Below, piece after piece: positions 20 to 61,706 of a stretch of 64,000 nt of DNA. The notes beneath the pieces are model-generated. The model was not told where the DNA came from. It did no database searches and saw only the letters and a program-made list of their open reading frames with translations. The stretch's first letter is position 1, and each line of letters begins with the position of its first letter. The DNA lies in the NCBI RefSeq assembly GCF_006345805.1, contig NC_043009.1:31620001-31684000 (forward strand), written 5' to 3'. Position numbers and translations under genes: made by a program. The DNA is from Octopus sinensis (lineage: Eukaryota).

Positions 20-653
20 AACAACAGTTTTCTTTGGGTATTATGATACTTTGCCTGCAAAGTTAAGGTGAACATTCTATTAAAATAATCATAAAAGCTC
101 CAAAATGCTTAATCATTTGTGCTAATTAATTAGGCCAGAATCTTTCCATCATGTAGAGGAAGACACACAAATCTTCCAGAAGAATAGTGTAAGCAGTCTG
201 CATCTTGTAAATGCAATTTGCACATTTTTCACTATTTATGATACCTAAAAAGACTTTAGAACACAATAGATTTTCCAACTATCCAAAAAAATATCGTAGA
301 CAATCTTGTTAATAATATGTCATTATATTATTCTACTTCCTTTTGAATATGCTATATATATATATGTATGTATGTATGTGTGTGTATATATATATATGTA
401 TAAGAAGAGAGAGAGGGAGAGAGAAAGAGATAGGGTGGTGTTACACAAGAGTATGTTTATAATCTAGATGGGTAATGAAGTCAATACAAAGATGCAAGTA
501 GGTTATAATTTTTATTTTTAGCTGAAAATTCATACATTTTGTCTGCTAGGTTCACATTGTACTGATTCTCCAACAATCGCTGAATGTCAGCTTCATATAA
601 TATAATACACACACACACATAAGACATATAAATATATTTACCTATATATATGC

Positions 654-5310: not shown

Positions 5311-7271
5311 CTTCTTCAGGCTCTTGTTGGCTGATTTGGTCATAGGACCACATCTCATCTGTGTCATTTTGTTAGGTTTGGTTTAGTCATTAAGGCTGGT
5401 ATTCAGTGAGAGGGTAATGTACTCCTTAATTTCTACCAGTCTCAGAGACCCTGAAAAGGGTCGGATAAATTAAGTTTGAGTAGAGAGGGAGACATCTTTA
5501 TGTTTGGAGATGAGTGGGGATTTACATATGTAGAAAGAGGCCAAAGATAAATAGATTCCTTGTTGTAGAGAAGTTACATGGCTACTCTCTTTATTAGAAG
5601 AGAAGGTGGAAATGATCGGGTTTGAGCTGGAAAGAGAGATAAGACAGTAGCGAAGGGGTTTCAAGGTGGACCTTCAAGGTAGAAGTTAAGTAGAATTGAG
5701 AGGGGACAGAACATGGAATATGGGTGGGTAGATGTTGCAAGACTATATGGAGAGAGTGGGGAATGGTGAATAGGTGATAAGCGAATACAATGAATAAATT
5801 ACAAGGGCTGAAGCATGGAATGGAAGATAGGGGACAAAGAAGAAAACGCAAAATGTGGTTGAAGTGGGCAAAGTAAAATTTTTTGCTATCTCAAACTGTT
5901 TTTTTTTTTAGATACTTTGAACTATGAAAGGAAATGTTGAAATATAGAAACCACAAGTTGGTATCTTGACTGCTGAGCCTTCTTTTATGGAACCAGGCGT
6001 AAAAGGTGTTAAAGTAATAAAAAGAAAAAGGTGAATATAGAGAATGTATATTCTAATTCATCCAATATGAATCTGCAACCAGAAATCCTTATCTGTACCC
6101 AAGAAGAATATACTAAAACAGGCTTACAAAACTTGTTTATTGTAACAACATTAACTGTGACTACACAAAGAATTTTTTTGCAATGCAGAATTGATCTGAA
6201 AGTAATTTACCTGCATGTAAGAAATTCCATTCTTTTTCTTTTCTTTACTACGAAGCAGTTAATGATTTAGGATAAAAAGAATTAAAGAGGGAAATAGATT
6301 TTTAGATGATGAACTATTTTCTCCCTTTTTAAGAAACTTCATAGAATGTTGAATTTAACAGAATGTGATATATGTCGAGAAATACTATGCTGATGATTGG
6401 AAAGAAGAGAGAAATGGTACTAAACATGTCTATCAGTGACTAAATTTATTTTATTTTATGTAAGAAAAAAGAAATTAAAAATAAAATATACATCTTTTTT
6501 GATAATGGTTAAATCACCACCAGAAGCAAATGAAAGAAAAAGTAGTTTTAAACCAACACTTCTGTAGTGTGATTGATATTTTGAAGGCAAAGAGAATCTA
6601 TTTTGTGACCATTTGCCAGAAGTTTGCAATACCAGAAAGCTTTCATGCTGAATAATCAATCATTGAACGATATGTTTGGAAACTTCTGCCCCCTAACAGT
6701 GGACAAAGACCACTGAAATATATTAATGTTGCTGTCAGAGACACATAACATGGAATTAAAAAATCTACCAAGCTAATAGGGAAAGATATTCCTGGTACAA
6801 TACTGTGAGACACAACTTGGTTGCAGAAGAAGCAGTGGTTACCATAAATTCTATGAACAATTCGTGATAGATGGCCTAAAAACAGAAACAGAAACTATCG
6901 ACTAAAAGTCATAAAACTTAAAATTTTTTTTACATATTGAAATTGTATCTGCTCATACTTTATCTAATTAAACTTAAAAATTATATAAATTGACAATTTT
7001 CGATATTGAAATAGATGTCTGTACATACCTTATTTATTTAAATCTACTCAAACATAATCAAATTTTAATATTCTTCATTTGTAGCTCATTAAAATTATAA
7101 ATTGCTAGTTGATGTACAGATAAATTTGATTAGTGTTGTATTACAGAACGTTAGAAAAAATTTCCATACCAGACTTTAAAATTTTTTCTCAGCTGTTGTA
7201 GCTTTTTGAGTTACAGCTATTCAAATTACTATATATTATACACAACTATATAACATAATACATATATGTGT

Positions 7272-7360
<89 letters not shown>

Positions 7361-7912
7361 CATACATGTACATATATATATTTATGTATATATCTATCTA
7401 ATGTGTGTATGTGTGTATACATATGTATGTGTAAGTGTATAAAATATATACACACACATTCACATATATAAAGACACAGAAACACACACATATATCTATA
7501 TAACATAGTACATATGTGTGTGTGTATATAAATATATGCATACATGTACATATACATTTATGTATATATATATATATGAATCTATGTGTGTGTATGTGTG
7601 TATAAATATGTATGTGTAAGTGTGTAAAATATATACACACATTCATATATATATAAAGATACAAAAACACACACATATATAGATATATGTATATAAAGCA
7701 GGCTTGTATGTGTATATGTAATACATGTAAGCATATATGTAATATATATCTATGTGTGTATGGATGTAAGCATGTATATATGCAAACATATATGTGTGCG
7801 TAAGGATGCATTTCAGATACTGATGTTACTATACATGTATCTGCACTTCTGTGTATATATCTGTGTATATATTGATATGTGTAGGTGTGTCTGTGCTTTC
7901 ATGCATGCATAT

Positions 7913-7959
<47 letters not shown>

Positions 7960-8271
7960 CACACACATACACAAAGGCTATAGTGACTCTTCTACAGTTG
8001 GAATGAAAGAGATAGAAATAAGTCATCAATGCTGAATTATTAAACAATAAAAATGATGAGTTTTAATGAAGAAAAATACTTGAAGACATTAAAAGAGTAA
8101 AAAAAGAAGAATTTCTTCCCATTTTCTGCCAGAATTTTTACTTTTCTTATGGTATTCATTTTCATATTTTCTTTCAAGATTATTTATTCAGAAGTAAGAC
8201 AAACACTGCTAATGTCACTACTACTACTACTTATGACAATAATAATAATGATAATAATAATAATAATAATG

Positions 8272-8314
<43 letters not shown>

Positions 8315-8324
8315 TAATAATTAA

Positions 8325-8908
8325 TTTGTTTATTGGCCACAAGGGCTCACATAAAATTACATTAAAAGACATACAACAACCTAAAAGACAAAAACAGATC
8401 ATATAAAGGGTTTTACAATGTGTAAACAATATAAATAACAATTATGAATTAAACAAATTAAAACTCCTAATAGGGGAGTCACTTTAAGGACCTTGTGGAA
8501 AAAAAACACAAAAGCCATAGGTACCTGAACAACAGAGCAAGTGCCCTTCTTTTGTTTACAGGTGCATGCTCAGATTTGGTCCTTTCACATTGGCCATTCT
8601 TCCAACATTCACCCACCTTTCAGCAAACTTGCTACAAGGCAACACTTCCCTCTCCATCCTTAACTTCTTTTTCAAGAGAAACTTGAAGAAGTTGTGGAGG
8701 GCTTGGCCAAAGAGGAAAGTGTGTGTCTTTAGCCCTTTCAAATGGGTCCACCATACTACTTCTTTCGCTACAGCCACTAGACAAATAAAAATTGCCGTTC
8801 CTCTTGGCCAAAAGAAGGCAGCAGGGCAATCTTCACAATGGATTCAGCTGATAGCTGGATCCGTCCCACATGTGACAGCAGGTGTTCGACATAAACCCAC
8901 AGGTCAGC

Positions 8909-8912
<4 letters not shown>
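8325..8912 (-). mobile_element. Tx1/L1-clade LINE ORF2 C-terminus and 3' UTR, inserted in (AAT)n
   Basis: Minus strand reads IADLWVYVEHLLSHVGRIQLSAESIVKI...AVAKEVVWWTHLKG...FFKFLLKKKLRMERE...FAERW, typical of the region after the zinc finger in Tx1-like ORF2. (AAT)n on both sides. Confidence 0.7.
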
Positions 8913-8955
<43 letters not shown>

Positions 8956-8957
8956 TG

Positions 8958-9024
<67 letters not shown>

Positions 9025-9029
9025 TGATA

Positions 9030-9079
<50 letters not shown>

Positions 9080-9082
<3 letters not shown>

Positions 9083-9636
9083 GCCCTGATGCAGTACCAG
9101 GCAGTGGCTCTCATGGCTTCTGATCTTAACTGATTGGAAGTGTTATCATGTACATTGTTTTGTCTTGGTGTAAAAGATGGGCTACAGCAAATATTCTGCT
9201 CAATACCACAGATTTGCTTGTCAGTTGTTTGACCTTAACCAGTTGAGCATGTCCCTTAGTGGCTGACGATATGTGCATCTCTGATCACGAGCAGAAGTAG
9301 TGGGGGAGCATCATAGCCATGTGTTGAGAGGGATTCTTTGGGGTTTGAATAGTTCGCCTCTGGAAACATGGGTGGTTCTTTCAACATCCTTAAACAACCC
9401 TTATTCAGAGACCGTTTGAGTGGGATGGGCTACTCAACCTGAAGAAAATTCTAACTGGGACCCACCTGCAAGGTCATGTGCTGTTTATCTTGATATGAGA
9501 TCACCATGTCGCGCACATATGGTTGTGATGCATGTGCCTGGTGTACCTTTATCAGACGGGTAGTCATGATGAGTATATTGGGCTTCGTATATTTTACCCC
9601 AGTGTCACCTTGATGGCATGAACTGCTCTCTCACTC

Positions 9637-9640
<4 letters not shown>
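9080..9640. mobile_element. Unclassified interspersed repeat embedded in (AAT)n
   Basis: About 560 bp of complex, GC-richer sequence bounded sharply by (AAT)n tracts. No ORF. Confidence 0.55.
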
Positions 9641-9668
<28 letters not shown>

Positions 9669-9699
9669 CGATGATAATAATAATGATGGTGATGATAAT

Positions 9700-9906
9700 C
9701 CTTTCTAAAACAAGGTCTGAAATTTGAGAGAGGAGTATAATCGATTACATCAACCCCAGCCTGTAATTGGTACTTAATTTATTGACCCTGAAAGGATGAA
9801 AGGCAAAACTGACTTCGGCAGAATTTGAACTCAGAATGTAGCAGCAGGCAAAATACTTCTAAGCATTTTGCCCAGCATTGTAACGATTCTGCCAGCTTGC
9901 TGTCTT
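9700..9906 (-). mobile_element. Meta-domain-like SINE
   Basis: tcgattacatcaaccccag..ggtacttaatttattgaccctgaaaggatgaaaggcaaa..gaatttgaactcagaa matches the family. Confidence 0.8.
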
Positions 9907-9910
9907 AGTA

Positions 9911-9990
<80 letters not shown>

Positions 9991-11020
9991 CCATTCTCTT
10001 AATGGCACAGGGCCTGAAGTTTTGAAGCAGGACAATAGTCAAAAACATCAACCTTAATGGTCGATTGGCTTATAAAAAAATGAAGTCTTAGAGTCAATTT
10101 ATTTGAAAAAAGTTTTCAAGGTGCTGCCCCAGCATGGCCACAATATACTGACTGAAGCAAGTAAAAGATAAAAGACACACCACACAAAGATACACACCAC
10201 AATTTTTCGGTTGCCCTGTTGCCAGCTCTCATTATTCACACAGCAGGATGAAACCCCTGCCCCCACTGGTTCCAAAGCAAGAGTCTTAATCACAGAGCCA
10301 TGATTGCACTGATAATAATATTAATCAAAAACTTAAAATGTCTGTAGAATTTGGAATCAATAAAAGAGAACATTGCAATTATCTTGCAGCTATGTCTCAA
10401 AATTAATCTCACATTTACAGCTGCCATGAAAATTATATATTCTTACAGGAACCTCCCTAACCATTTTTTCTTCCCCTTTGTTCACCAAATTTTAATAAGT
10501 TAATGAGGAATTGTGTAACAAGTTTCTGTATTTCTTGGGGCCCAGATCAGTATTGAAAGAGAGAGATTCCAGCTTAAGATGATGTGTTTATTAAACATGT
10601 GTTATTTTGTCTTTGTAGATAATGCTTTTGTTTTCTAGTCTTTTTACAGGTGTAGTGGTTCTTTACCATTTTGATATCAACTCACCTGAGACTGTCCCTG
10701 GCTCTGAGACAAAAATGTTTCTCTTCTGAATTGATCTGCCTTAAAAGCTTCGATCACATTTTCATCTTTTTAGCTCTTTTATCTAGTCACTTGTTTTATC
10801 TAGTCACTTGTCCTGGGGCACTGCTTTGAAGAATTTTTAATTGAATGATTTGACGTCTGTACATGTTTTTTTTAAGCCTGGTATTTATTCCATCAGTCTC
10901 TTTTGCCGAAGTACTAAGTTACAGGGATGTAAACACCAATGTCAGTTGTCAAGCAGTGGTTGAGGACATACACACATACACATATGCATGCACGTACATA
11001 GACACACATGTATATTATTT

Positions 11021-13315: not shown

Positions 13316-13805
13316 AAGAAGGAAACTTTTATAAGTATCAACAACTCCCAACTAATTTCCACAAATCAAAAATCAAAACATTTTCTTTTAAACAAAACAA
13401 GAAAATACCAATATTCCAAATGGAGTACAATTAGCATTTAAGATGTTTCTTGCAAAAAACTTCCTCAGCTTTTAATTTAGTTGCAGCAGCAAATGAACAG
13501 GTGGCTCTGATGCCTGTACAACTTATACAGAAAGGGGGTGGGTTGTATAGTTTATCTAGTGTTCCATAATTGGTAAAATATTGGCTCTGCAACCTCTTCA
13601 GAATTATTCTGTGACCAAATTTCAGTCACAATTCATAGGTTGGAATCTGTTACTCAATCTATTCACAATCACCTGCAAAAATTGGTAACCAGCGCTTAAT
13701 TATATATTTCCATGCAGAAGACACCAGTTGGTAAATTTTCCAATACCATTATTTGAAATTATTTAATCATTTAATTATTTTTAAGAGTAAAACTAAATAT
13801 TCTTC

Positions 13806-13934
13806 ACAGTTCTATATTTAAGAGATGAGGAATTATGTAAATTATTTCCATTATTTACATTTGACGGATATGGCATAGTGATTAAGAGCATGGGCTACTA
13901 AACCCAAGATTCTGAGTTTGATTCCAAGAAGTGA

Positions 13935-13970
<36 letters not shown>

Positions 13971-14135
13971 TAATAACATCGTAAAATACCTTAGAAATGA
14001 GAACCCAGGTTTGAAATTTCCCCAAGACACCTGATGAAGGCTGGAGGGTATATTAGCCGAAACGCTGTGTTAACAACAAACAAGATGAGGACAAATATCC
14101 ATCAAATGTAAATAATGTAAACATTCTTCAAGTTG
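13806..14135 (+). mobile_element. tRNA head + (AAT)n + hammerhead tail element, preceded by an inverted copy of its 3' end
   Basis: A-box-like tggcatagtga at 13871, B-box-like gagtttgattcc at 13914, (AAT)n at 13939-13976, HHR at 14026-14071. 13806-13871 is the reverse complement of the family 3' end. Confidence 0.75.
14026..14071 (+). ncRNA. Minimal type-I hammerhead (cleavage triplet mutated)
   Basis: GACAC-CTGATGA-A-GGCT..AGCC-GAAAC-GCT-GTGTT. Stem I GACAC/GTGTT. Sister copies have GTT where this one has GCT. Confidence 0.75.
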
Positions 14136-18185: not shown

Positions 18186-18706
<521 letters not shown>

Positions 18707-20929: not shown

Positions 20930-22169
20930 CACACACACATATACATATATACACATGTATATATATATAAGTATATATATATATATATAGACGTATTCAT
21001 ACATATATATACATATGTATATGTATGTATACGCGTGCACACACACATGCATATACACATATATATGTGTGTATGTCTTTGTGTGATTGTGTATATATAT
21101 ATATATATAGATAGATATACATACACACACATATATACACTCACACATGCACACATATACATACTCACACATCTATGAAGATGTTCACTTACGCACATAC
21201 ATCCGTAGTCAAATGAATGCACCCCATTCATACCTGCAAGCAACAAACAAATGAAAGAGTTTCTCAGATGACTTATTGTGGATAAACTTTCAATAAACTT
21301 TTGATCAACTTGATGTTCCTGTGTTCCATAACTGTGTCAGGTTTTAAATGTGTGCTAAACTGAAAATGCTGCTTCATTTGTGGGACATTGTGCACCACCA
21401 ACTTTCCAGAGTTATTTCTTAGAGAGTTTATTGTCTTGAAGTGACATGTCCATCTACACTCTATCATCTTGCTTAGCCGTAGGGAGAGAAGAGTATGTGT
21501 GTGTGTGAATGAGTGAGTGAAGGAGAGAATGGTGGGGGTTCATGATGATGATGATGAGGGGGAGGAGGAAGATAGTGGTGCATAAAAATGCACTTGTGTT
21601 GGTGCCACGTAAAAAGCACCCAGTACACTCTGCAAAGTGGTTGCCATTAGGAAGTGCAACCCACCTGTAGAAACCATGCCACAACAGACAATTGGAGCTT
21701 GGTGCAGCTCTTTGTCTTTCCAGTTCCTCTCAAACTGTGCAACCTATGCCAGAATTTCGCATGCTGGCATGGGTTGCACGATGATCATGATCGTGATGGT
21801 GATGATGATGAATCTAACAATAAGAATGACAAGTTAAAAATTCCACAGATGGTCCCTTTACCATTTTATCCTTTTGAAGTCGATGTAAAAATAACAATCA
21901 TCATCATTATCATCATCAATATCATTACCAGTCTAACGTCCACTCTTCCATGCCTGACAGTAGAATAGCAGGCATTCAACTGTCTGACACTCTTCTTGTT
22001 GCTACCCATCCCCTTATCAATTAAGGTAATATTCACCAATTAAGCCTTTGAGCATGAAGAGCACAAGGGCTGGAAAGGATTTCACACAAGATTGCACTCT
22101 CTATGATGGTCACATTTGTTTGCAACCCATAGATTAGTGTGGTTATGTATATATATATATATATATAAC

Positions 22170-22565
22170 ATGAGCAGAAAATGGAGAAAAAACTTTTGAT
22201 CAACAAAGTGACTACTATTGGTTAAATATTTTTTAATACAGGTCTTGAACTTTGCTTACAGCCGTTTCTGCTGCCAATGTCAGTCAGTACCAGCAAAGAA
22301 AATTATGAGAATATTATTAAGCCTTCTTCCCTCTTCTCTTCTTTTATTTTATGTATTTGTATTCACTCTGATGAAGCTCCATGTATTAGATCAGATGTGC
22401 TATAAAGATGACGGATATTATTCTCATAATTTTCCTTCGCAGCACCGACTGACATCGGCAGCAGAAACGGCTGCAAGCAATATTCAAGCTTTGTATTAAA
22501 AAATATCTAACCAATGGTTGTCAATTTGTTTGTTGATCAAAAGTTTTCTCCATTTTCTGCTCATT
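22170..22565. mobile_element. Inverted-repeat PLE-type terminus with hammerhead-like motif
   Basis: Arms 22170-22317 and 22415-22564 are reverse complements. Plus strand has CTGATGA at 22368 and GAAACGGCTGCA at 22464; the inverted arm has GAAACGGCTGTA. Confidence 0.65.
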
Positions 22566-22737
22566 TTAAATTTGATTCCTGATTAACTCCCATCTATTCT
22601 GTTATTACCTGTATCCTATGTGCATAATATGCTTGCATATCCATGCCCAGGGTTAACATAGGTAATTTATACTGGTAGTAATAACGGATATTCTTATCCC
22701 TTAGACAATTACTCCAAGTGCTAACTCTATTTACCTT

Positions 22738-26267: not shown

Positions 26268-26462
26268 ACAGTTCTATATTTCAGAGTTAAGGAATTATGT
26301 ACATTATTTACATTATTTTCATTTGACGGATATTTGTCCTCATCTTGTTTGTTGTTAACACAACGTTTCGGCTGATATACTCTCCAGCCTCCATCAGGTG
26401 TCTTGGGAAAATTTAGAACCTGGGTTCTCATTCCTAAGGTATTTATCGATATTATATTATTA
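26268..26462 (-). mobile_element. Third copy (tail only) of the (AAT)n-hammerhead element; HHR at 26357-26402
   Basis: GACAC-CTGATGG-A-GGCTG..CAGCC-GAAAC-GTT-GTGTT, followed by the full 3' end ...aaatatagaactgt. Confidence 0.8.
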
Positions 26463-26465
26463 TAC

Positions 26466-31566: not shown

Positions 31567-31885
31567 ATGGCATGTAAAAAAAGTACCGCCCGAATGTGGC
31601 TGGTGCTAGCGCTGCCTTGACTGGCTCCCATGCTGGTGGCATGTAAAATGCACCAATCTGATTGTGGCCGTTGCCAGCCTCGCCTGGCACCTGTGCCGGT
31701 GGGATGTAAAAAGCACCCACTACACTCTTGGAGTGGTTGGCATTAGAAAGGGCATCCAGCTGTAGAAACATTGCCAGATCAAACCTGAGCCTGGTGCAGC
31801 CTCCTAGCTTCCCAGACCCCAGTTGAACCGTCCATGCCAGCATGATGATAATGATGATAATGATGATAATGATGATGATGATGAT
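31567..31885 (+). mobile_element. RTE 3' UTR copy
   Basis: Reverse complement of 55657-55980; ends in (GAT)n. Confidence 0.8.
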
Positions 31886-31906
31886 ATATGCATATATATG
31901 TACGTA

Positions 31907-32295
31907 TGGCATGGCTGAGTGGTAAGAAGCTTGCTTTCCAACCTCATGGTTACAGGTTCAGTCCCACTATGTGACACTTTGAGCAAGTGTCTCCTGGCTA
32001 TAGCCTTGGGCCAACCAAAGCCTTGTGAGTGGATTTGGTAGAGGGAAACTGAAAATAGGCAGTCATGAGTGTGTGTGTGTGTCTTTCTATCTATGTTTGT
32101 CCACCACCACTACTTGACAACCGATGTTGGTGTATTCATATCCTTGCTACTAGTGGTTTGGCAACAAAACCAATAGAATAAGTACCAAATAATAACCAGT
32201 CCTGAGATTGATTTGGTTGACTAAAACCCCTTCAAGGTGGTGCCCCAGCATGACCGTAATCAAATGACTGACACAAGTAAAAGAAAAGATAAAAT
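31907..32295 (+). mobile_element. tRNA-derived SINE, family of 34385
   Basis: ggcatggctgagtggtaagaagcttgct..ggttcagtcccact..caagtgtct..; tail ccccagcatgacc..aaatgactga..caagtaaaag. Confidence 0.8.
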
Positions 32296-34325: not shown

Positions 34326-34378
<53 letters not shown>

Positions 34379-34384
34379 ATATAT

Positions 34385-34767
34385 ACGCAGGAGTGGCTGT
34401 GTGGTAAGTAGCTTGCTAACCAACCACATGGTTCCGGGTTCAGTCCCACTGTGTGGCATCTTGGGCAAGTGTCTTCTGCTATAGCCCCAGGCCAACCAAT
34501 GCCTTGTGAGTGGATTTGGTAGACGGAAACTGAAAGAAGCCTGTCGTATATATATATATAAATATGTGTGTGTGTGTTTGTGTGTCTGTGTTTGTCCCCC
34601 TAGCATTGCTTGACAACCGATGTTGGTGTGTTTACGTCCCCGTCACATCGGTTCGGCAAAAAAAACCGATCGAATAAGTACTGGGCTTACAAAAAAATAA
34701 GTCCCGGGGTCGAGTTGCTCCAGCATGGCCACAGTCAAATGACTGAAACAAGTAAAAGAGTAAAGAG
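34385..34767 (+). mobile_element. Near full-length tRNA-derived SINE with internal (TA)/(TG) tract
   Basis: A-box tggctgtgtgg, B-box gggttcagtccc, CORE-like cttgggcaagtgtctt, tail gactgaaacaagtaaaagagtaaagag. Confidence 0.85.
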
Positions 34768-37092: not shown

Positions 37093-38918
37093 TATGCAGA
37101 CAGACAAACCTGCAATGTAATATGTGTCCAGCAGATAAAAGGCACATTATATTTAAATGATTGACCCTGTTTTGGCAACTTCAACATTTTTCGTTGCCAG
37201 TACACTGCTTCTTTGATGACCATTTTTCTATCACGTTTTTAGTGTGACTTCTCTTGAGGTTACACGTTGAGTGACTGGCCTTTCTTCTAACGGTCATCCT
37301 TTCACTGCCATAATGCCCCACTTCTGTAAAAAAATGTCTCTCATCAAACAACCGTTTCATATAACCATTTCTCTTTTTGTTTCAAAGACAAAATATGATG
37401 TAAAACTTTTATTGATGGTTTTATGGTTCTTTTGGTAGTTTTTCCTTAGATTTCTTTTTGCCTTTTCTTTTGCAACTCCCGACGAAGCGAATGCATGAAT
37501 CACGCATTATTGCTGGCTGATTGCCGCCTTGCTGGGAGTGACTTTCTAAGAAACAAGTGCTGCTTACCTTTTGGGACTACTGTCAAACGCAAACATACAC
37601 AGACACACATATACATACATGCACAGTCATACAAATGCATTTAACCATACATGTATGTATGCATGTATATACGTGCATGTGTTTATGAACATTTTTGCGT
37701 ACGGATATAGAAACACGCAGAATACACACACGTACGTACATATATCCGTGGGTGGGATATTATGTGTATTCACGCATACACATGCACACACACAGAGGCG
37801 TAAGTATGTATAAGTCTATGTTATTGCTGATTTATTGAGGCATACATTTTCACATAAACGAATGTATATATAATATATATAGTCAATAAATATACGCACA
37901 GAAAGAATGAAAGTGTGATAGTTAAGGTGGAAGATGTATTTGGTTGAGTGTTGTTAGCGTAGGATGGCATTAAAATGTTTCTAAAGAATACGAAATGGAC
38001 TTTTTTTCAATGGTACCGTTGACGAGAAGGATGTCAAAGATGACGTAAATCAGAGAGGTATTTGGTGAGCTGAAGAATAGAAGAATAAATGGGAGACGAG
38101 GATAAAGCTAGAGAATTGGTAAGTGTTTGCGTATGGATGAGAGAAAGAGAGAGAGAGATAATGTGTGTGTATTGGGTATGGAACTAGAATGGTGTAGTGG
38201 ATGATGATGTGAGCGAATTTTACTGTAAATACAGATTATAGAATATAGAGAAGTCGGCATTATATATTGGGAAAAGGGGAAAAAATAAAATAGATAATGG
38301 ATTGTTGTGCTGGCTTTTGTAAGAAGAAAGACAGAGAAATGATGGATGAAGTGTTATTGGGAGAGAAGCGACGGTGTAGTTGGGTTGTTGGCAGAGCAGT
38401 GTCAACGAAGTCTAAGTGATGAAGCGGCCGTGTTGAAAAACAGAAAACATATTGAATTCAAACAGTTGCAGATATTGAGCCAAATGTTTATCTTCATGAA
38501 TTTTTATTTGCTGCTAACACTTTCAGAAGGGTTGGAATTGTACGAATACAGTGCCAATTTCAAAGTGGATTCTAAACCTACAGGTCACAGAGAATCGTCC
38601 ATCATAGTTACTTTTTATCCGTTTCCCTCATTAAAGATTTATATATATAAAAAATATAACTAAAACAGCAAAAAATCGCATATTTGGCAGGGAAAGAGAA
38701 ACTGAAAATTGTTATTTATCTGCTTGTCTCAAACTCGACATGCTTCATGTAAAAAGAATACAAAATAAACCAATAAAACCCTTACTATTTTATCTGCATA
38801 AAGTGGGCATATATATATATATATATATACATACACACATACGCATACATACATACACTCACATATGCACTATCTTCAAGATAGCATGTTAGTACCAGTA
38901 TATCTATCTATCAATTTA

Positions 38919-38966
<48 letters not shown>

Positions 38967-39149
38967 AATGTATATATATATGCATATATATGTATATATA
39001 TGTATAAGTATATATATGTATATATGTGTGTGTGTGTATATATATATAAATTGATAGACAAACAGACAGACAGACAGACAGATAGATAGATAGATATTTG
39101 TGTCAGTACAGTAAACACGTACATATATGTTTTTGCTGTTGCCACACAA

Positions 39150-47905: not shown

Positions 47906-48090
47906 AAATTCTTCTCCTATACCGAAATGATGGAAACCTTTATAGTGGCAACTGGAATTTCAAAAGTGTAAAGTACTAATATCGAAGAAGAAACAACGAT
48001 AAACACTCGTACATATACACATGTGGAAAGTCCATTATCATTAATTGATATAGAGCACAGATTTATATTTATAGATCTATCTATCTATCT

Positions 48091-48133
<43 letters not shown>

Positions 48134-48167
48134 TCTATCTATCTATCTATCTATCTATATATATATA

Positions 48168-48240
<73 letters not shown>

Positions 48241-48242
<2 letters not shown>

Positions 48243-49046
48243 GAAAGAAGGTTTGAAAATGCAATTTAAAAGATGTTTATTTACTTAACCGGTTTCACTC
48301 TTTGGAAAAAGATTGTCAAAATTAACATAGAATATTATGAATTCAAAAAAGTTTTTTACATAATTGCCACATTACATGTATATATACAGTCTTTGGTAAC
48401 AGGGACATGTTAAGGACTTAAGAAAGTACAACAGTATGATGAGAATATTTGAAAAAATGGGCAGAAAAGATTAAAATAAATATATTATACATCTCAGGGT
48501 CAGTACAGAATATTATGAATTCAAGGCGAGCTTGTTTACTGACCTGTCCGTTTTAGCAGGTCAGTAAACAAGCTCACCTTGAATTCATAATATTCTGTAC
48601 TGACCCTGAGATGTATAATATATTTATTTTAATCTTTTCTGCCCATTTTTTCAAATATTCTCATCATACTGTTGTACTTTCTTATGTCCTTAACATGTCC
48701 TTGTTACCAAAGACTGTATATATACATGTAATGTGGCAATTTGCAACAACCAATAATTAACGCAACCAAACTTCCAATAATATATTTGTTTTATTCTTTT
48801 CTGCCCATTTTTTCAAATATTCTCATCATACTGTTGTACTTCTTTATGTCTTTAACATGTCCCTGTTACCAAAGACTGTATATATACATGTAATATGGCA
48901 ATTATGTAAAAAACTTTTTTGAATTCATAATATTCTATGTTACTTTTGACAATCTTTTTCCAAAGAGTGAAACCGGTTAAGTAAATAAACATCTTTTAAA
49001 TTGCATTTTCAAACCTTCTTTCGTATATAATTCCACTCGTGCGATA
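48241..49046. mobile_element. Young nested palindromic PLE-type terminus between (TA)n tracts
   Basis: Near-perfect hairpin 48363-48546/48557-48740, plus outer arms 48241-48470/48795-49024. Confidence 0.85.
48940..48984 (+). ncRNA. Hammerhead variant with U3-A8 core (inverted copy at 48281-48325)
   Basis: TTACTT-TTGACAA-TCTTT-TTCC-AAAGA-GT-GAAA-CCG-GTT-AAGTAA. Confidence 0.65.
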
Positions 49047-49082
49047 CCCCACAACTCAACTTTGTTATATATATATATTATA

Positions 49083-49114
<32 letters not shown>

Positions 49115-49152
49115 CACATACATATATATACACGTACATATATGGATATATA

Positions 49153-49204
<52 letters not shown>

Positions 49205-49292
49205 TACATATATATACATATACATATATGGATATATGTATATGTGTGTTTATATATATACATATATGGACATATATATCTGTATATATATA

Positions 49293-49548
49293 GTGTTGTG
49301 TCTGGGGTGTCATTCTCTTTTAGTGTCTTATTTAACACACTTACCAGTTAAGTTTCCTCTCAATTACTAATTAATCTTTCCTAAAATTTTCGTTCCATCT
49401 TGCAACCTTTTCAATAGCCATTGACTATTGAAAATGTTGCAAGAAGCTGCTAAAATTTTAGAAAAAATTAATAAGTAAATGAGTGGAAACTTAACTGGTT
49501 AATGTATTAAATAAGACGCTAAAAGAGAATAACACCCCAGACACAACA
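49293..49548. mobile_element. Palindromic pair of PLE-type termini, family of 54855-55045 and 57795-57885
   Basis: Arms 49293-49417 and 49425-49548 with a ~7-nt spacer. The centre carries U3-A8 HHR-like motifs. Confidence 0.75.
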
Positions 49549-50223
49549 AAATATGTAAAAGTATATATTAATATATATATCCATATGCTTATATGTAAGT
49601 GTGTGTGGTGGGTGTTGTGTGTGTGTTTCTATCAATGTCATTCATTCACAAAGCATTGTTCAGTTAGGGACTATCAAAAAATGACACCTTTCCAAAGTGT
49701 CATACCATAGAACTGAACCCAGAACCTTGTTGTCACAAGGTGGAAAGTCTTACCTGCATTTATATAACATATAATATACACACTTATATACATTCATATA
49801 TGTATATATGACTGTATATGTGTATGTATAGGTCTGTAGTATATATGTATGCATCTGCACGTAAATCTATAGATACGTGATTTATATTATTCATACATTG
49901 ATATATCCCAGAACACCATCCATCAAAGACAAAAGTACTAAGAAACTAGAAACTCTGTCAGCAGTCCCCACCATTGCTGTTTATAAAAATGCTTATCTTG
50001 GAATATTTATTTTTAAAGGAGAACACCTCTTATGGAGAGCTTCATTTTTTATTCAAATAGTTTCAGTAAAATACACAACACAGCTGCATTCTTTTCTAGA
50101 ATGTATGTTTCTGTGTTCTTACCTCTGCGTCTATTTGTATGTGTATTGAAGCGAGCAGACACATATCTACGTATATATATATGAACATAACTATCTATCT
50201 CTTTATATATATATATATATATA

Positions 50224-54231: not shown

Positions 54232-54660
54232 ATATAACATGGACATCAAGAAATGGTATAACATGGATATCAAGAAATGGTATAACATGGATATCAAGAA
54301 ATGGTATAACATGGACATCAAGAAATGGTATAACATGGACATCAAGAAATGGTATAACATGGATATCAAAAATGGTATTACATGGACATCAAGAAATGGT
54401 ATAACATGGATATCAAGAAATGGTATAACATGGACATCAAGAAATGGTATAACATGGACATCAAGAAATGGTATAACATAGACATCAAGAAATGGTATTA
54501 CATGGATATCAAGAAATGGTATAACATGGACATCAAGAAATGGTATAACATGGATATCAAGAAATGGTATAACATAGACATCAAGAAATGGTATAACATG
54601 GACATCAAGAAACGGTATAACATGGATATCAAGAAATGGTATAACATAGACATCAAGAAA
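54232..54660. repeat. 24-bp tandem repeat, ~18 copies (ATGGTATAACATGGAYATCAAGAA)
   Basis: Direct head-to-tail repeat. One unit near 54365 has a 1-bp deletion, which splits the WYNMDIKK ORF into two frames. Confidence 0.95.
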
Positions 54661-57276: not shown

Positions 57277-57592
57277 GGCGCGTGGCTTAGTGGTTAGGGC
57301 ATTCGGCTCATGATCGTAAGGTTGTGAGTTCGATTCCCGGCGACGCGTTGTGTCCTTGAGCAAGACACTTCATTTCACGTTGCTCCAGTCCACTCAGCTG
57401 GCAAAAATGAGTTGTACTTGTATTTCAAAGCGTCAGCCTTGTCACTCTCTGTGTCACGCTGATTATCCCCGAGAACTACGTTAAGGGTACACGTGTCTGT
57501 GGAATGCTCAGCCATTTGCACGTTAATTTCACGAGCAAGCTGTTCCGTTCATCGTATCAGCTGGGACCCTCGTCGTCATAACCGGCGGAGTC
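57277..57592 (+). mobile_element. Full-length young tRNA-derived SINE (Deu/Nin-domain-like centre)
   Basis: A-box tggcttagtgg, B-box gagttcgattcc, tgtgtccttgagcaagacactt..ccactcagctg..aaatgagt. Confidence 0.85.
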
Positions 57593-57884: not shown

Positions 57885-58082
57885 AGTGCTATCCGAGGAA
57901 AAGGCAAAGGCCGATACAGCTTGGCATCTGTGATGACGCAACGCATTTCTACAGTCAAGTAAACTGGTGCAACGTGAAATAAAGTGTCTTTCTCAAGAAT
58001 ACAACACACAGCCTGGTCCGGGATTCAAACTCACAATCTCACGATCGTAAGCTCGACGGTCTAACCACTGAGCCATGCGCCT
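57885..58082 (-). mobile_element. tRNA-derived SINE, related subfamily
   Basis: Minus: ggcgcatggctcagtggttaga..gagtttgaatcccgg..aagacactttatttcacgttgc. Confidence 0.8.
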
Positions 58083-61519: not shown

Positions 61520-61706
61520 AAGATTTTTGCCAACATAACATGGCAGTCCTGGTTTAGGACGAATGTTGCTGTAATTTAGCCTCAGGAGACATCGTCTCCA
61601 GATTCCCTCTGTCGTATAGCCAGCTGGAGACGATGTCTCTTGGGGCTAAATTACAGCAACATTTATCCTAAACCAGGACTGCCATGTTATGATGGCAAAA
61701 AATCTA
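61520..61706. mobile_element. Hairpin MITE-like insertion
   Basis: ~80-bp arms 61521-61601 and 61624-61705 (cataacatggcagtcctggtttagga / tcctaaaccaggactgccatgttatg) with a ~22-nt spacer. Confidence 0.8.

Follow-up and report, generated by a model that had tools for sequence, protein, structure and literature searches.

A decayed insertion and its relatives in the window

We analyzed a repetitive insertion in a 64,000-nucleotide stretch of the Octopus sinensis genome (contig NC_043009.1, positions 31,620,001 to 31,684,000; hereinafter, the window), which the initial annotation had interpreted as a short interspersed nuclear element (SINE) consisting of a tRNA-like head, an (AAT)n linker and a hammerhead-bearing tail, mobilized by the machinery of Penelope-like elements (PLEs). 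The insertion, at positions 13806-14121, is one decayed short copy of the pseudo-long terminal repeat (pLTR) of a PLE with an inverted arm. The arm (13806..13871, minus strand) represents the last 66 nt of the pLTR, including the ~28-nt PLE 'tail' extension, and shares a 4-nt microhomology with the head. It is followed by the tRNA-derived segment of the pLTR (13868..13939, plus strand), which spans positions ~+5 to ~+75 in family coordinates, counted from the initial G of the tRNA-like segment as 0, and includes the A box TGGCATAGTGA (13871-13881, plus strand) and the B box (13914-13925, plus strand), both mutated in this copy. The (AAT)n run (13940..13976, plus strand) separates the tRNA segment from the start codon, forming the 5' untranslated region of the downstream open reading frame (ORF), and the former 'tail' is the beginning of the PLE ORF, comprising its first 41 codons (13997..14121, plus strand; ATG at 13997), two stops included; it ends at the inner site (~+249) for the start of reverse transcription. 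A minimal type-I hammerhead motif lies inside this ORF start (14026..14071, plus strand) and comprises stem I (GACAC/GTGTT), CTGATGA at 14031, an extra A, a 6-bp stem II and GAAAC at 14059. The decay of the copy is evident in the A box (GG>GA), the B box (C56>T) and the cleavage triplet (GTT>GCT). An 8-bp target-site duplication ATTCTTCA (13799..13806 and 14123..14130, both on the plus strand; 12 bp with one mismatch when the left one is counted from 13795) encloses the whole insertion, and therefore the arm, head, AAT run and tail were inserted in one event. The A box, B box, (AAT)n run, hammerhead core and inverted 3' piece (13806-13871) described in the initial annotation are all present in the sequence; the end of the insertion, placed there at 14135, actually lies at 14121, the flanking duplication having been overlooked.

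Two more copies, both on the minus strand, are located in the window. One (18192..18706) is 5'-truncated inside the head (it begins agtgacctga), carries an expanded (AAT)n run of ~330 nt and ends near +249; the head/linker junction agtgacctgaataat, previously noticed to recur in this copy, is indeed found at 18706-18692. The other (26268..26463) is truncated at the (AAT)n run and retains the full 3' end (+276), so that the recurrence of the tail reported for this place is real. Across the 2.72 Gb host genome, a 20-mer from the head has 3,719 exact matches and a 24-mer from the tail has 9,889, with none for the reversed-pattern controls.

A protein-coding Penelope/Poseidon-type element carries the unit

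The tail lies directly downstream of the head in 27 of the 30 best head matches, in agreement with the proposal that the two form one unit; together with the ORF-anchored loci described below, this rules out chance adjacency. At several tail loci, GIY-YIG-like coding sequence was detected just upstream of the head. Conversely, among 30 loci found with GIY-YIG coding DNA, the head follows the stop codon in 25, only the tail is present in four and neither is detected by BLAST in one, so that 29 of the 30 contain the head or the tail; the head begins ~30 nt past the ORF stop. Walking upstream, we found the 5' end of the ORF fused to another head-AAT-tail block, which lies upstream in direct orientation, with the exact upstream pLTR-ORF junction motif present in 11/30 loci. 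Full-length copies are thus pLTR-ORF-pLTR tandems, in which the non-coding spacer between stop and ATG consists of ~30 nt, the tRNA copy, the (AAT)n run and ~20 nt.

The polished consensus (2,658 nt) forms one open frame; in the tandem join, its start codon is an ATG that falls within the 'tail', at +120, and it encodes 835 amino acids, with the hammerhead located within the first ~52 codons. The reading frame is kept in 37/53 real ATG-to-end lengths and in 4/5 true junction copies, and an unrelated homolog, P0005, aligns through, and conserves, the hammerhead-encoded peptide. The consensus protein contains the DKG, YVDD and GIY-YIG motifs expected of a reverse transcriptase (RT) with a C-terminal GIY-YIG domain; an RVT_1 match was obtained for the real ORF of locus L167 and none for that of L180. 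Most of the 382 homologs are listed with PF00078/PF28514/PF26215. The linker zinc finger of Neptune/Nematis is absent from the family and from P0005 and present in the Neptune-like control L091, and in a quick tree, which included no named Penelope or Poseidon reference, the family is separated from two Neptune-like sequences and groups with P0001, P0002 and P0004. The head, the (AAT)n run and the hammerhead 'tail' are thus firmly identified as the pLTR of a protein-coding PLE, which by its anatomy is of the Penelope/Poseidon type. Because the head sits in this autonomous PLE both after the stop codon and in the upstream pLTR, it is an internal part of a long element and the 'tail' is the start of the PLE's own ORF; a separate chimeric SINE with a borrowed tail is therefore not what the family represents, and the tail indeed belongs to the terminal repeat of an RT and GIY-YIG element. 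A search for relatives in metagenomes yielded eight distant PLE loci (34-65% identity in the best segment), one of them with a B-box-like match; a prokaryote scan returned one weak match and a scan of viral sequences none.

A second PLE family was considered as a partner and rejected: the head is present in 0/41 loci of a Neptune-like 781-aa family from the GIY-YIG search (44 loci examined), only one of which has as much as a 21-nt match to the 3' end. This family (L091-L099; for example, G000:C1:207474000-207480000) is young, with intact ORFs of 780-781 aa; upstream of several of these lies a second open frame, of 280-479 codons, that overlaps the ORF.

To characterize individual copies, we used a head sample of 90 regions, drawn in position order from the first 100 head matches listed (n=87 after dropping three exact duplicates), and a tail sample of 70 regions among the first 100 listed, with places already in the head sample skipped (72 segments, the classes of which were partly corrected by eye). 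Four insertions (L159, L160, L162 and L163; G000:C1:21.69-22.60 Mb) are identical in identical context, a segmental duplication or an assembly repeat, and three of them were excluded from the counts. An inverted-arm geometry like that of the window copy, the 5' inversion that the initial annotation had suggested looking for, was observed in 52/90 sampled copies. The 3' ends are bimodal, at ~+249 and ~+276. Tandem pLTRs, an inverted 5'-truncated arm and a 30-40-nt tail at one end are the signature described for PLEs (PMC8557442); the inverted arms and the two 3' ends match it. The proposed mobilization by PLE machinery is borne out.

The consensus hammerhead has a CUGANGA/GAAA core, a short helix I, a long helix II, a palindromic helix III and an unpaired nucleotide before stem II, with N7 free to vary (T 271, A 74), in agreement with the minimal type-I hammerhead described for PLEs (PMC4209133). 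Folds predicted for the monomer and the dimer showed no clear active hammerhead. A common in-frame 3-nt deletion at +188..190 (14-25% of copies) takes out the cleavage triplet, and a 9-nt indel near the 3' end, also common, likewise keeps the frame.

The tRNA-derived segment and the 5' ends of copies

A profile built from 31 distinct tRNA genes of the host genome identified the head as its sole match in the family consensus (E 1.3e-5; the window copy matches weakly, E 0.054). The A-to-B distance is 45 nt, compared with 44-46 nt in eight real tRNAs, and the A/B box pattern arises in 0.18% of shuffles. The claim that the head is tRNA-derived is thereby upheld, with the promoter geometry intact in the consensus. 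Isotype scores among 34 sampled tRNA genes were alike for Arg, Cys and Ala, and a search whose matches were all driven by microsatellite sequence contained nothing relevant among the best 150 of 344. A tRNA-derived promoter in the pLTR of this PLE is likely, and the segment between the stop and start codons is probably the internal RNA polymerase III (Pol III) promoter of the element.

The 5' ends of the copies bear on where the RNA starts. In the head sample, 65 of the 87 copies start between -22 and +20 (23 of them at +1..+20) and 22 extend further up, toward or into the ORF. Within -8..0, 5' ends occur at a rate of 6.1% per nt, compared with 0.26-0.37% across the ORF; this is ~18 times the background, with a hard edge near -6. 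When short copies keep the bases at -6..-3, the ATT that lies upstream in the template follows in 0/22, compared with 13/13 long copies. The tail-anchored segments (n=72) end in the tail (19), in the AAT run (21), inside the head (2), at the start (21) or after entering the ORF (9), so that among those that reach +20, 21/30 stop by -22, and the end rate inside the head (+21..75) is not raised (2/32). It is likely that the pile-up shows where the RNA of an abundant PLE begins, whether or not Pol III is the polymerase involved.

The sense strand of the 2,932-nt tandem unit contains no TTTT, the signal for Pol III termination, where 4.6 would be expected by base shuffle (P 0.008). In ten control PLE sequences (eight metagenome contigs and two Neptune-like ORFs, each a single distant sequence), TTTT is present in all ten, 5-23 times each, with 102 observed against 66.8 expected; given this 1.5-fold excess, the absence from the unit has P 0.0007. 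The significance depends on the null model (a synonymous-codon shuffle of the ORF gives 2.5 expected, P 0.05, and a first-order Markov null gives P 0.078), and GGGG is likewise absent (0 versus 3.2 expected; 34 versus 21.2 in the controls), so that a general strand bias may be the reason for both absences. As an adaptation to Pol III, the lack of TTTT is only suggestive. Low phenylalanine was discarded as a sign of T avoidance: the content of 2.4%, versus a median of 3.4%, is not distinctive, given that 14 of 119 homologs have 2.7% or less, and close homologs have similarly little.

Pol III transcription, as originally surmised, is likely; the A/B geometry, the 5'-end pile-up and the absence of TTTT speak for it, if only indirectly. 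Under the mechanism that we propose, the upstream pLTR would be bound by TFIIIC at its A and B boxes, and transcription by Pol III would start near G(-6), producing a leader like that of a pre-tRNA. The PLE protein would then bind the 5' end of the ORF, nick AT-rich DNA and start reverse transcription internally, at +249 and +276, by analogy with Poseidon_Ac (PAc) of Anolis, in which it starts internally at two sites in the 5' part of the ORF (PMC11167929). Priming in the upstream pLTR, ~250-280 nt from the RNA 5' end, would give a run-off product, the SINE-like short copy; the free cDNA end could fold back or pair with a second primed strand, yielding the inverted arms and forms. Priming in the downstream pLTR would produce long copies truncated to varying extents and, on rare occasions, a full element equipped once more with its promoter. 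Protein could be supplied by RNA polymerase II (Pol II) read-through, with Pol III supplying the template. In its full form, namely that a coding PLE is transcribed by Pol III, with the tRNA copy as the whole promoter, TTTT purged from the 2.9-kb unit and some ten thousand SINE look-alikes shed, the proposal is tentative. The least certain part is the reading of the whole ~2.9 kb by Pol III and the translation of an uncapped RNA.

Several observations weigh against this proposal. The anticodon arm and the acceptor stem of the head are degenerate, and neither a tRNA nor a ribozyme was recognized in the unit by Rfam and ARAGORN. The processivity of Pol III has been argued to limit elements of this kind to ~1.3 kb (PMC10886601). 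Three raw RNA-seq runs from one organism (7,043-10,209 reads each) showed equal strands and no pile of starts, and 66-71% of the reads continue into unrelated flank; this pattern would fit many dead copies being read through passively, and as such does not bear on the promoter model. The family is also present in contigs of a fourth run from that organism, and runs of five other organisms contain 0.25-0.51 of its words; a search across sequencing runs listed no RNA data set that contains it. The hammerhead offers no remedy for translation, its cut site (+190) being located downstream of the ATG (+120), and therefore self-cleavage would leave no translatable 5' end; nor do 5' ends pile up markedly at the cut site (4/72 at 188-193), and hammerhead cleavage is not supported as the source of the 5' ends. 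A TATAA motif and a hairpin, each of which supports an alternative considered next, add to these points.

The strongest of the alternatives, albeit rather unlikely, is a Pol II start near -6, set by the TATAA at -34 that overlaps the ORF stop, with the tRNA copy as a passenger or a downstream element; the short copies would still be run-off cDNAs. Placed 27-28 nt before the hard 5' edge, the TATAA fits a Pol II start there, and a capped RNA would settle the question of translation. The mapped promoter of Penelope from D. virilis, which lies in the pLTR, is internal, TATA-less and like that of a LINE (a long interspersed nuclear element), and comes with an intron (PMC2377424). A promoter upstream of the start would, however, be lost in each cycle: the near-complete pLTR-ORF-pLTR element L271+L398 has an upstream pLTR that opens with the tRNA segment, and that of the ORF-truncated L279 opens at +3, in both cases without the TATAA (in L261 and L262, the upstream pLTRs begin further up). 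An internal A/B-box promoter would outlast each cycle and an upstream TATAA would not, and Pol III is therefore favored. A Pol II start also leaves the intact A/B geometry and the absence of TTTT unexplained, and, by eye, G precedes the edge in only 3/18 non-inverted 5' junctions, so that no signature of cap copying is evident, although this is a weak test.

Less probable still is that no RNA starts here: in the copying of a longer RNA, the tRNA-like fold and the GCCC-NN-GGGC hairpin would make the RT stall or snap back, and the short copies would be ordinary 5' truncations. The leader and head have a predicted fold of -26 kcal/mol, the TGCCC/GGGCA hairpin straddles the pile-up, snap-back extension from it is seen in 10/22 short copies, and the ends at +1..+20 are compatible with stalling. 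Yet a stall would be expected at the 3' foot of the stem (~+5 or further 3'), whereas the actual peak at -8..0 lies past the stem; none of the 22 informative short copies runs into the template beyond -7, and the low rate of ends inside the head is also at odds with a stall.

The relationship between short and long copies bears on the last alternative. Linked variants that define subfamily B are enriched in short copies in the position-ordered samples (21/73 versus 1/25 long copies, P 0.011; 33/99 versus 7/59 when all loci are counted), and some short copies may have been re-amplified independently. An apparent paucity of deletions in short compared with long copies was put down to ascertainment bias. 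That a stand-alone Pol III SINE lineage, with short masters, is amplified in trans by the PLE and the ORF-linked heads are secondary fusions is very improbable: the subfamily B enrichment and the A/B boxes kept, with no internal TTTT, in short copies would fit such a lineage, but the head sits inside the autonomous element at both pLTRs and is no module of a SINE's own, no variant is exclusive to short copies, the divergence of which is similar to that of long ones (4.3% versus 4.8%), L271+L398 is a full pLTR-ORF-pLTR member of subfamily B, and in the one PLE tested the template has to include the first 172 nt of the ORF (PMC11167929), of which only 129-156 nt are present in short copies. The most fitting reading of the short copies is that they are run-off products of the 5' end of the autonomous RNA rather than a SINE parasitizing a partner.

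Comparison with known elements and other repeats in the window

In its overall organization, the family resembles PAc (PMC11167929) and Penelope of D. virilis (PMC2377424), as these sources describe them, with a single ORF for RT and C-terminal GIY-YIG in a tandem pLTR-ORF-pLTR arrangement, the ORF starting in the pLTR and running through the hammerhead, 3' ends at two positions separated by ~28 nt and inverted arms. It differs from both in that a tRNA copy, with A and B boxes, and (AAT)n make up almost the entire non-coding portion of the pLTR, that 5' ends accumulate where the tRNA segment begins and that TTTT is lacking in the unit. The probable Pol III promoter of the family, derived from a small RNA, residing in the terminal repeat and regenerated with it, has a counterpart in the TRIMp3 elements Cassandra (5S), Helenus (tRNA) and Ajax (5S); these are non-coding LTR elements of 0.3-1.3 kb (PMC10886601), whereas here the repeat belongs to the coding element and the chemistry is of the PLE type. 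The tRNA-related repeats Sm-alpha and Sj-alpha of Schistosoma also combine high copy number with a type-I hammerhead (PMC2770079, PMC8490949), and among short repeats Sm-alpha is the closest analogue; the likeness is one of description, and the available parts of these articles mention no coding partner with a shared tRNA head. Such 'ribozyme SINEs' elsewhere may be of the same origin. Animal non-LTR retrozymes are, similarly, hammerhead-bearing short repeats from PLE pLTRs, described as tandem units each with a hammerhead (bioRxiv 10.64898/2026.07.22.740005), whereas the copies sampled here are scattered, as monomers or as inverted pairs, and have a tRNA head. On this ground, and given that roughly one in four head-bearing copies (the 22/87 that extend toward or into it) is attached to the parent ORF, we rejected the identification of the family with retrozymes.

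The octopus SINEs OK, OR1 and OR2 are tRNA-derived short repeats. OR2 is a CORE SINE (PMC4758252), unlike the present family, the body of which consists of AAT and the start of a PLE ORF; with the comparison confined to OR2, the short copies may already be known under the name of a SINE. A literature search found no PLE with a tRNA promoter in the pLTR; it lay outside Repbase, Dfam, SINEBase and supplements such as the repeat library of PMC13282606, which may hold the family.

The transcription of PLEs and the survival of the pLTR promoter have been mapped for very few elements. If the tRNA copy is the promoter, an internal promoter of the tRNA type would directly solve the problem of promoter regeneration in PLEs, and SINE-like families could emerge without a separate SINE master. 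Such an element would contradict the expectation that coding retroelements, including the autonomous partners of TRIMp3 elements, use Pol II and do not share the Pol III repeat (PMC10886601), and it would open to direct test how a 2.5-kb ORF could be both transcribed by Pol III and translated. Should Pol III play no part, repeat annotation would still split and mislabel this family as a SINE plus a PLE.

The window contains several other repeats. A second tRNA-headed repeat is present in two copies (57284-57342, plus strand, and 58012-58078, minus strand) that match the tRNA profile better (E 2e-9 and 2e-6) than the PLE head and probably belong to a conventional SINE family; a further abundant tRNA-like family is represented at 31885-32185 and 34368-34681 and by related copies. 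Long inverted repeats, resembling miniature inverted-repeat transposable elements or fold-back insertions, are located at 48064-49597, 22163-22571, 38899-39058 and 61524-61701, with the longest match, up to 380 bp at 96% identity, at 48362-48741. Finally, positions 54233-54660 are occupied by a tandem array of ~72-bp units with ~95% identity.
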